The notes under the pieces: model-generated | Database searches by the model: none | What the model was told of the DNA's origin: nothing | Seen by the model: the letters and a program-made list of their open reading frames with translations, nothing else | In this document: piece by piece, positions 56,880-57,692 of the stretch | Layout of the letters: every line of letters begins with the position of its first letter | How positions within the stretch are numbered: position 1 is the stretch's first letter | Source: an uncultured Candidatus Saccharibacteria bacterium | GTDB lineage: Bacteria; Patescibacteriota; Minisyncoccia; Phycocordibacterales; UBA6065 | Length of the DNA: 64,000 nt | NCBI GenBank assembly: GCA_964495425.1 | Contig: CAZBVG010000002.1 | Coordinates: forward strand, 14,570 to 78,569 | Reading direction: 5' to 3' | Translations under genes and position numbers: made by a program

Positions 56880-57692
56880 TTATTTTTGAGATATATAAAA
56901 AGCCTTTTTTGCTCGTGAATTGTCTCGAGCTTCCTTCGTAAGTCCATGAATTTTTAAGGATTCGGTACCCAAAATATTTAGTTTATGTTTAGATAGGCTG
57001 GATATTTTATTTTTACTTTCAGATAGTAATCTAAAATGATTTTTTGAATTAAAACCCAATGCTTTTAAAATGATCGCTGATTCATCAAAGGTTCTAATAT
57101 CTATATTTTTTGTATCTCTAAAAAATAGTTTCGCTGCTGAGATTGTATCTATTTTTAGTTCATTCATTAATTGTTGAATCGCCATCTTAAATTTTGGCCA
57201 TCCTCTACCATCATGATTGGGAATTAGAATCAACACACCGCCCTTCATTTGAATGATCTTTTTTAATGAAAGCTCATACTGACGCCTGCAATCGCAGGTG
57301 GTGTCTCCTAATACCATCCCCGAATAACACCCAGAGCTGATTCTTAGAAGTATTTTTCTTTTTCTTAAGAGATGGGTAAGATTCGGATAAATTAGGATAT
57401 ATTGCAGACCCCATTTACCATCAATAACTTTAGCGGGAACCATCTGAAACTTTCCAAATTTGGTGATAATTGGTCCTGGTGTACCGAAAGCTACAATTTG
57501 ATTTTTTATTTTACCACTTACATTAACAAATTTGTATTTATGAGAATTATTAACAATTCGTGAGAGATATTTATGCTCCGATTCATCCTTATGTTTTGAT
57601 TTAGGAAATTTGTATACCCTACTAATCGCTTTTTGTTTACGCGCTTTGTTTAGTTGAGAGTATAAATCGTGAATAGTTTTCTTGTAGGACAT
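56880..57692 (-). CDS. GTP cyclohydrolase II (RibA)-like protein with an extra N-terminal region of about 105 aa (18-30% GC gene)
   Basis: LLRISSGCYSGMVLGDTTCDCRRQYE aligns to the RibA zinc motif RVHSECLTGDxxxSLRCDCGxQ. NHDGRGWPKF aligns to QEGRGIGLLNK, but the conserved Tyr of IRAYKLQ appears replaced. Confidence 0.5.
   Translation of the reverse strand: MSYKKTIHDLYSQLNKARKQKAISRVYKFPKSKHKDESEHKYLSRIVNNSHKYKFVNVSGKIKNQIVAFGTPGPIITKFGKFQMVPAKVIDGKWGLQYILIYPNLTHLLRKRKILLRISSGCYSGMVLGDTTCDCRRQYELSLKKIIQMKGGVLILIPNHDGRGWPKFKMAIQQLMNELKIDTISAAKLFFRDTKNIDIRTFDESAIILKALGFNSKNHFRLLSESKNKISSLSKHKLNILGTESLKIHGLTKEARDNSRAKKAFYISQK

Follow-up and report, generated by a model that had tools for sequence, protein, structure and literature searches.

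Does a gene that resembles ribA, in a bacterium of the Candidate Phyla Radiation (CPR), encode a riboflavin enzyme or an enzyme with another task? The question is raised by an open reading frame (ORF) at positions 56880..57692, minus strand, of a 64,000-nucleotide stretch of DNA, hereafter the window, from an uncultured Candidatus Saccharibacteria bacterium (GenBank assembly GCA_964495425.1, contig CAZBVG010000002.1, positions 14,570 to 78,569). The ORF starts with ATG and encodes 270 amino acids followed by a stop codon. A preliminary description had seen in it an isolated and divergent homolog of GTP cyclohydrolase II (GCHII), possibly repurposed to make a GTP-derived signal or metabolite, and this interpretation is partly supported by the present analysis. 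The gene product is an intact and folded protein of the GCHII superfamily, and it is not the riboflavin enzyme RibA. It belongs to a subfamily, the tight family below, that is restricted to Saccharibacteria and other Patescibacteria and forms part of a broader clade of GCHII-like proteins, here called the DSGC clade. Its genomic context points to the metabolism of nucleotide pools.

Membership of the superfamily was evident from both sequence and predicted structure. The window protein matched the Pfam family PF00925 with 62.1 bits (E 6e-17, cutoff 23.3), residues 77-242 corresponding to positions 10-162 of the 165-position profile, and RibA proteins of known structure, from H. pylori, M. tuberculosis and E. 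coli, were matched with E values of 1e-7 to 1e-5. In the hhalign comparison with E. coli RibA, which gave a probability of 99%, residue 73 was paired with E. coli residue 9. The AlphaFold2 model of the protein, obtained from a 29-sequence family alignment, had a pLDDT of 92.4 and a pTM of 0.90, and Foldseek aligned it with E. coli RibA (2BZ0) over 183 columns with a TMt of 0.86 and an rmsd of 2.5 Å. The Pfam match, the hhalign alignment and the fold of the model thus bear out the proposed homology. The homologous part is nevertheless longer than the 165 residues first given, since the catalytic core starts at about residue 73 and covers about 198 residues (residues 73-270, positions 56880..57476, minus strand).

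In RibA, a tyrosine positions the zinc-bound water and is needed for deformylation; this residue, Tyr105, is reported to hydrogen-bond the water. The first active-site motif of the window protein, R117-I-S-S-G-C122 ... C133-D-C135 (57288..57344, minus strand), contains three zinc-ligand cysteines, C122, C133 and C135 in CYSGMVLGDTTCDC, which are equivalent to C54, C65 and C67 of E. coli RibA and invariant across the family. The canonical RVHSEC-LTGD is replaced by RISSGC-YSGM (family consensus R-I-D-S-G-C-x-S-G-M), the RibA residues H51, E53 and D58 being all substituted. The motif is followed by the D161-G-R-G-W loop and the helix K169-M-A-I-Q173-Q174 (57171..57212, minus strand). In the DGRG part of the loop (residues 161-164), G162 is invariant in the family and R163 nearly so. 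RibA Tyr105 falls on Q174, within FKMAIQQL, a column occupied by Q, R, K, I, T or F but never by Tyr in the family. The tyrosine is absent from about 40 family members and from nearly all of the 150 best representatives found in the profile search described below. The residues beside this position, K169, M170 and Q173, are invariant or nearly so. Because the spacing between the GRG and DT anchors is 20 residues in both the window protein and RibA, the register at Tyr105 is ungapped, and MAFFT, hmmalign and hhalign agree on it. A register shifted by one residue, with the near-invariant Q173 opposite Tyr105, was ruled out by the equal anchors and by the three alignment methods.

Two further elements concern the phosphates. 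D198-I-R200 (57093..57101, minus strand) is invariant at D198 and R200, the latter corresponding to Arg128 of RibA, which is proposed to act as the nucleophile when pyrophosphate is released and is associated with a guanylyl intermediate. The TNNPxK motif of most members is degraded to SESKNK in the window protein (57006..57023, minus strand), where the phosphate-loop Lys229, nearly invariant in the family, is alone kept. In RibA, Arg128 contacts the alpha-phosphate, and ring opening, unlike the release of pyrophosphate, depends on zinc (review PMC10366380). The preliminary description, which had pointed to the zinc-binding region, the GRG loop and the replacement of the catalytic tyrosine in FKMAIQQL, was therefore right on all three, and the profile alignment to PF00925 that it proposed as a check showed the zinc ligands and the Arg128 equivalent to be kept and the Tyr105 equivalent to be lost.

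Similar proteins were recovered from large sequence collections. A search of 5.8 billion proteins yielded 32 homolog clusters, including that of the query and several truncated sequences, with lengths of 235-300 amino acids and identities of 30-56%, most of them covering 83-97% of the query. A scan of the genome collection with the single window protein as query gave no loci; the alignment-based scan gave five, labelled as uncultured Candidatus Saccharibacteria or as Candidatus Staskawiczbacteria. When 1.84 billion representatives were searched with a profile, 4897 matches were obtained, 70 of which had E <= 1e-30. In the 150 best of these 4897, the columns matching the E. coli active-site residues were read for a clade signature. 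Nearly all of them share R-[IL]-D-S-G-C-x-[ST]-G-[QM] ... C-[DE]-C ... D-G-R-G ... D-x-R ... T-N-N-P-x-K, and a few are canonical sequences (HSEC ... EGRG ... K-I-x-A-Y-x-L-Q). The window protein fits the signature with S-S-G-C, C-D-C and D-G-R-G, and lacks Tyr at the 105 position. The core domain was placed in a neighbour-joining tree, a distance tree only, in which all 38 members bearing the N-terminal extension (38/38) were monophyletic and nested among DSGC sequences, apart from the HSEC-type RibA proteins; the sister of the window protein was P0002. By these sequence comparisons, the tight family, of about 40 clusters, forms a monophyletic group inside a large unnamed DSGC clade, whose members come from CPR, DPANN and other reduced genomes.

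Clade members carry the source names "hypothetical" or "GTP cyclohydrolase II domain-containing protein" (Candidatus Chisholmbacteria; a metagenome-assembled genome of Holosporales), and fusion proteins of the clade are named "orotidine-5'-phosphate decarboxylase". In the literature, no paper was found on the DSGC clade and none linking GCHII with Saccharibacteria. A role in anti-phage defence was considered and set aside: PADLOC gave no defence match for the enzyme or for broad-clade members, its matches at the TrmB and kinase genes being generic helix-turn-helix (HTH) and HATPase ones only. A phage origin was likewise rejected, as tblastn found no match in 50,697 phage records.

One explanation for the window gene would be an ordinary RibA, which catalyses the first step of riboflavin synthesis while the remaining rib genes lie elsewhere in the genome. 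The PF00925 match, the zinc triad and the Arg128 equivalent are consistent with it, and riboflavin pathways have been reported in some CPR bacteria, among freshwater CPR for Gracilibacteria (PMC9166423). The family-wide loss of Tyr105 and the substitutions in HSEC and TGD argue against it, as do the scores. The NCBIfam ribA models have cutoffs of 148-764 bits, and the window protein remained far below them, with 62.2 against 205.85 bits for TIGR00505 and 54 against 148 bits for NF001591. The surroundings of the gene are no more favourable. A Pfam scan of essentially all ORFs of the window revealed no ribB, ribD, ribE, ribH or ribF, in line with the earlier remark that no ribBDEH genes lie nearby. 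Context was further surveyed in 26 distinct loci of the tight family, collected from contig look-ups and a metagenome scan and read from precomputed Pfam matches and our own hidden Markov models (HMMs); no rib gene was present in them, and the conserved operon partners are a cytidylate kinase (Cmk) and a zinc protein instead. Rfam models detected no flavin mononucleotide (FMN) or other riboswitch in 56000-58700 with an E limit of 1, and across the whole window and five orthologous loci no match reached the gathering score. The Pfam content of the window is that of a housekeeping region, with two MreB, MreC, PBP2, a Mur ligase, MraZ/MraW, several aminoacyl-tRNA synthetases, GAPDH, RpiB, Rpe, a split transketolase, DnaB and ScpA/B, as well as DnaK/DnaJ by synteny. 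A riboflavin RibA is thus very unlikely here, and we give hardly any credence to the version in which its partner genes are encoded elsewhere.

The same loci showed which genes do accompany the enzyme. A ~105-115-amino-acid zinc protein with two CxxC pairs is encoded directly downstream of it in 15 of 23 loci, and cytidylate kinase comes next after in 17 of 22, often with overlapping stop and start codons. Immediately upstream, a divergent gene for a TrmB-family regulator is present in 10 of the 19 loci in which the upstream flank could be read. Among these ten, one is otherwise non-syntenic, and its TrmB HTH is fused to an FGE-sulfatase domain (496 amino acids, divergent to the GCHII-like gene; L016:6447-7937, corresponding to L025:4444-5949).

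In the window, this TrmB-family winged-helix regulator (255 amino acids, 57852..58619, plus strand) is the only conserved partner present. HMMs of the zinc protein and of Cmk matched none of the frames of the window, and in the sister locus L013, as here, neither gene is nearby. The order histidine kinase, TrmB, GCHII-like gene, sigma factor, HisRS, TrpRS, ABC transporter and AspRS is shared with one Saccharibacteria locus. The gene had been described as isolated, which is true of the window copy insofar as TrmB alone accompanies it; it is, however, a member of a CPR-wide nucleotide-metabolism module, and looks isolated because this lineage lost the other members locally.

The preliminary description had given weight to a sigma factor directly following the gene. 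An ECF-type sigma-70 factor is indeed encoded on the same strand (56051..56767, minus strand), 112 bp from the enzyme gene, and the sole terminator-like site falls after it, so that the two genes are possibly co-transcribed. This arrangement would suit an enzyme that generates a signal coupled to the sigma factor. However, a sigma factor occurs within two genes downstream in only 3 of the 23 informative loci, all of them close syntenic relatives and one with Cmk intervening, and no anti-sigma or sensor link was found. The adjacency is lineage-specific and not a feature of the family, and we consider such signalling highly improbable. The analogy with toxoflavin-type synthesis also fails, as no such genes occur in any locus.

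Next to other family members, the upstream side held genes of a different kind. In L021, a 413-amino-acid protein with a thymidylate-synthase-like N-terminal part and a SAM methyltransferase domain (L021:906-2147) and a protein of ~205 amino acids belonging to no Pfam family are encoded divergently upstream of the GCHII-like gene. The upstream ORFs at L024:2288-3523 and L028:1440-2684 match the L021 fusion in size and orientation.

The absence of the zinc protein and kinase from the window and from L013 raises the alternative that the window gene is a relic, which has drifted since its partners were lost and has little or no function left. The protein is the only member with Gln at the otherwise invariant His97 (H97Q), its SESKNK is likewise peculiar to it, and the GC content of the gene lies about 10 points under that of the window. 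On the other hand, the ORF is intact. Of the 66 columns with a conservation of 85% or more among the other members, the protein keeps 58 (57-66 across the family), and no catalytic invariant is lost; the gene can therefore not be called decayed. The full length is modelled with confidence, and syntenic genomes still carry both the gene and the TrmB gene beside it, with protein identities of 44-56%. A relic thus seems to us very improbable, if somewhat less so than a link to the sigma factor.

As for the base composition, the gene had been called the one with the lowest GC content in the window; at 32.2% it is the third-lowest of 57 ORFs, the lowest being the adjacent TrmB gene (31.5%), and the pair makes up the lowest-GC 1-kb bin. 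A low GC content is common to the family: in all 12 relatives checked, the gene lies 1-8 points under its locus, as compared with 10 points in the window, where the depression spans the TrmB gene too.

The two divergent genes are separated by an AT-rich intergenic region of 159 bp (57693..57851), in which promoter-like sites are found in both directions, not above chance. An element TTGACAAC(A)/TGTTGTCAA is present in 8 of 8 orthologous TrmB/GCHII-like intergenic regions, a number reached in none of 200 shuffles. For the TTGACAAC(A) element, an extended -35 box is one possible explanation and a portion of an operator another. A search of the orthologous intergenic regions for shared inverted repeats that could form an operator found none in common.

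The N-terminal part of the protein had been described as a lysine-rich domain of 105 amino acids. An extension exists and contains 20% Lys, but it is shorter, with about 72 residues (residues 1-72, 57477..57692, minus strand). Helices at residues 10-19 and 39-50 and a beta-hairpin at 54-58/65-69 are predicted, and the extension is modelled as ordered, with pLDDT above 89 from residue 11. Y27, a Y-Q-F-V block and F69 are conserved in the family. The structure prediction that had been suggested for this domain thus depicts a folded, family-conserved extension. It matched no Pfam family, the sole match being a sub-threshold one to CSN5_C (18 against 27 bits), which was treated as chance. Since the alignments of many broad-clade matches begin at profile positions 40-75, the hairpin part probably occurs beyond the tight family as well. 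A likeness to the N-terminal domain of the UTP cyclohydrolase UrcA is not supported: a longer, 270-column Foldseek alignment leaves the query-normalised TM at 0.56, as compared with 0.57 for RibA.

The zinc protein that accompanies the enzyme forms a family of its own, of 48 clusters all named "hypothetical". Its members are basic, have ~105-116 amino acids and two CxxC pairs (CxxC ... YQKDGDGxLKRCYLNRI ... CxxC ... HHDGRxAFRL), and are almost always encoded next to a DSGC-type GCHII-like gene. Examples are L012:10961-11290, L008:10810-11154, L033:6001-6345, and L034:545-880 and 3158-3508. Searches revealed no Pfam domain and no sequence match in the PDB. The predicted structure is confident (pLDDT 92.6) and had no significant neighbour among PDB structures, the best E value being 0.2. 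Weak matches were to the C-terminal domains of RIG-I, DRH-3 and LGP2, to Mis18 Yippee, to cereblon and to YPEL5; on the basis of the model, a kinship with RIG-I C-terminal, Yippee and cereblon-type two-CxxC zinc domains might be followed up as a lead only.

Several gene arrangements tie the enzyme to these partners. In L030:5998-7035 (corresponding to L011:958-1995), enzyme and zinc protein form a single in-frame ORF of 345 amino acids. An internal GAGGAGG-N9-ATG is retained at the junction, and the ORF is either a true fusion or the product of a lost stop codon with retained internal initiation. The contig L018 bears two convergent GCHII-like paralogs (L018:5917-8736), one from the tight family and the other a broad-clade member (TDSGCESGQ ... 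LATLYLQ) situated in a cmk, zinc-protein, gch operon. In about 35 clusters from Paceibacterota, Parvarchaeota (DPANN archaea) and Acidoferrales, the DSGC domain is fused to a genuine PyrF; some of these fusions also carry a guanylate kinase (Gmk), and separate PyrF::Gmk fusions exist (fusion-related proteins P0055, P0052, P0084 and P0257). In L034:545-3508 (Paceibacterota GCA_035510635.1), the zinc protein (141 bits to our HMM), a GCHII-like::PyrF protein, Gmk and a second zinc-protein paralog (101 bits) are encoded in this order by overlapping genes. This module of a DSGC enzyme, a zinc protein and a nucleoside monophosphate (NMP) kinase, with or without PyrF, appears to be undescribed so far, and the window gene is a pared-down representative of it, made of TrmB regulator and enzyme only.

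What, then, might the enzyme do? The explanation that we favour, tentatively and at a little under even probability, is a zinc-dependent enzyme that opens the ring of a nucleoside triphosphate (NTP), probably GTP, and releases pyrophosphate, in nucleotide salvage or turnover. Given the invariant zinc triad, Arg128 equivalent and GRG together with the near-invariant Lys229, NTP binding, pyrophosphate release and base opening are most likely kept. The enzyme would bind a nucleoside triphosphate, most probably GTP, pyrophosphate would leave through R200, and zinc-activated water would open the base. Since the tyrosine is absent and no conserved residue stands in its place, the deformylation carried out by RibA is probably not completed; the reaction would probably stop at, or be diverted from, a formylated ring-opened ribotide of the formamidopyrimidine (FAPy) type, and yield no riboflavin precursor. 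The operon with, and in one case the fusion to, a zinc protein, and the presence of an NMP kinase (Cmk, or Gmk with PyrF in the sister subclade), suggest a role in nucleotide salvage or pool turnover. Such a role, rather than one in cofactor synthesis, would fit an episymbiont auxotrophic for nucleotides, and Saccharimonadia are unable to make nucleotides de novo (PMC12592800). The divergent TrmB-family regulator would control the enzyme gene, regulator and enzyme being all that the lineage of the window keeps.

Several observations weigh against this proposal. The replacement of H51, E53 and D58 in the first motif could alter the handling of base or metal. The recurring partners are on the pyrimidine side (Cmk, PyrF) as often as on the guanine side (Gmk), and the adjacency of Cmk could be housekeeping synteny. 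Within the family, His97, otherwise invariant, and most of TNNPxK are missing from the window protein alone, and neither the zinc protein nor the kinase is encoded locally; compared with its relatives, it may therefore be less active or act differently.

The pyrimidine partners and the remodelled first motif would also suit a cyclohydrolase for CTP or UTP, comparable to UrcA, that feeds or drains the pyrimidine pool. The UTP cyclohydrolase structures 7EEV and 7EJ3 match the fold (E 3e-7), which can therefore act on pyrimidines. Yet the family profile scores about 63 bits with RibA proteins and only 12.9 bits (E 0.42) with UrcA, and the query-normalised TM given above is no better for UrcA than for RibA. 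No genes of the URC pathway were seen, and the kinase of the PyrF-fused subclade is Gmk. We regard a pyrimidine substrate as unlikely.

Another explanation retains only the arginine-dependent half of the reaction. The protein would then convert NTP to NMP and pyrophosphate, for instance as a sanitiser removing damaged or modified GTP from the nucleotide pool, with no productive ring opening. E. coli RibA reportedly hydrolyses 8-oxo-dGTP, and a downstream NMP kinase would recycle the NMP product. Pyrophosphate release by RibA is independent of zinc and of ring opening (PMC10366380), and other nucleotide hydrolases adjoin the gene in some loci, namely Maf in L003, NUDIX in L015 and a HIT/DcpS-like protein in L017. 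Each of these neighbours was found in one locus only, however, and the zinc-ligand cysteines are invariant across the whole clade, which argues that a zinc-dependent step is under selection. A pure pyrophosphohydrolase has, in our estimation, a small chance of being correct, and the zinc-dependent ring-opening enzyme is the explanation we retain.

For the module as a whole a broader proposal can be made, which we consider possible though rather doubtful: DSGC enzymes, the zinc protein and the NMP kinase, with PyrF in some lineages, may together perform an undescribed nucleotide transformation, for example a zinc-dependent ring opening of purine NTPs or a base conversion. If so, CPR bacteria and DPANN archaea that are auxotrophic for nucleotides could use this route to rebalance the nucleotides they scavenge from the host, or to dispose of them, and the window gene would represent a TrmB-regulated version of the DSGC enzyme that works independently of the partners.

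The wider module is a more interesting result than the window gene itself. Saccharibacteria and other CPR bacteria lack nucleotide synthesis and live off host cells, and the handling of scavenged nucleotides is therefore central to their biology. The proteins annotated as "GTP cyclohydrolase II" in these genomes form a clade of their own, which kept the zinc site and lost the catalytic tyrosine, and they are not the riboflavin enzyme; pathway reconstructions that score "ribA present" are therefore misleading. The clade is tied to NMP kinases, to PyrF and to a family of zinc proteins that had so far escaped notice. Together, enzyme, zinc protein, kinase and TrmB regulator make up a small, testable module that recurs across the CPR and reaches the DPANN archaea.

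Some other features of the window were recorded. Two ORFs without Pfam match (19966-20553 and 20609-21049, minus strand), of ~33% GC, form a second low-GC trough; they lie directly beside tRNA-Glu(CTC) (21062-21134), the single tRNA gene of the window, and may be a small integrated element. A Pol-beta-type nucleotidyltransferase ORF (47609-48250, 213 amino acids) is possibly foreign or of toxin-antitoxin type; its GC content, 31.6%, is as low as that of the TrmB/GCHII-like pair. At 18-1595, an ORF of 525 amino acids has the unusual architecture of an N-terminal Cro/C1-type HTH (PF01381) joined to a domain of the EPSP-synthase family (MurA/AroA-type); its predicted start may sit too far upstream. 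The two MreB genes (2074-3135 and 6939-8006), accompanied by MreC and PBP2, are paralogs, and the transketolase is split over two adjacent overlapping ORFs (27478-29368). A SET-domain protein of 181 amino acids (60493-61038) is conserved in the syntenic loci.

Among known systems, the closest is E. coli RibA (PDB 2BZ0/2BZ1; PF00925; EC 3.5.4.25), with which the window family shares the fold, the C-x10-C-x-C zinc cysteines, the GRG loop, D-x-R and, in most members, TNNPxK. It differs from RibA in lacking Tyr105 and in having R-I-[DS]-S-G-C-x-S-G-M instead of RVHSEC-LTGD, while the window protein further has a folded N-terminal extension of 72 amino acids, sub-equivalog scores and other operon partners, with neither rib genes in the 64-kb window and family loci nor an FMN riboswitch. 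A parallel for the loss of the tyrosine is offered by SCO6655 of Streptomyces coelicolor, a GCHII paralog with a Tyr-to-Met exchange that reportedly stops at the formylated product; swapping the Tyr and Met residues reportedly interconverts the two GCHII activities. By description, both groups retain the GCHII fold, zinc and arginine and have lost the tyrosine, but the specific Met of SCO6655-type paralogs contrasts with the variable Q/R/K/I/T/F and the remodelled first motif of the window family, and a setting in actinomycete secondary metabolism with the nucleotide operons of the CPR. UrcA/Urc1 (7EEV, 7EJ3; Foldseek E 3e-7) resembles the window protein in its GCHII fold and in extra N-terminal sequence, and it acts on a nucleotide pool outside riboflavin synthesis, as the window protein probably does. 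It is distinguished by its length of ~400 amino acids, a large N-terminal domain, of which Pfam gave no sign in the window protein (PF00925 being the only family found), an HDEC-type motif and the low profile similarity to the window family (12.9 bits). Finally, A. baumannii RibBX (6MNZ; Foldseek E 7e-5) also has a GCHII-related domain that is not a working RibA. In RibBX this domain is fused to DHBP synthase in riboflavin metabolism, whereas the window protein is standalone and belongs to a family with an invariant zinc triad.

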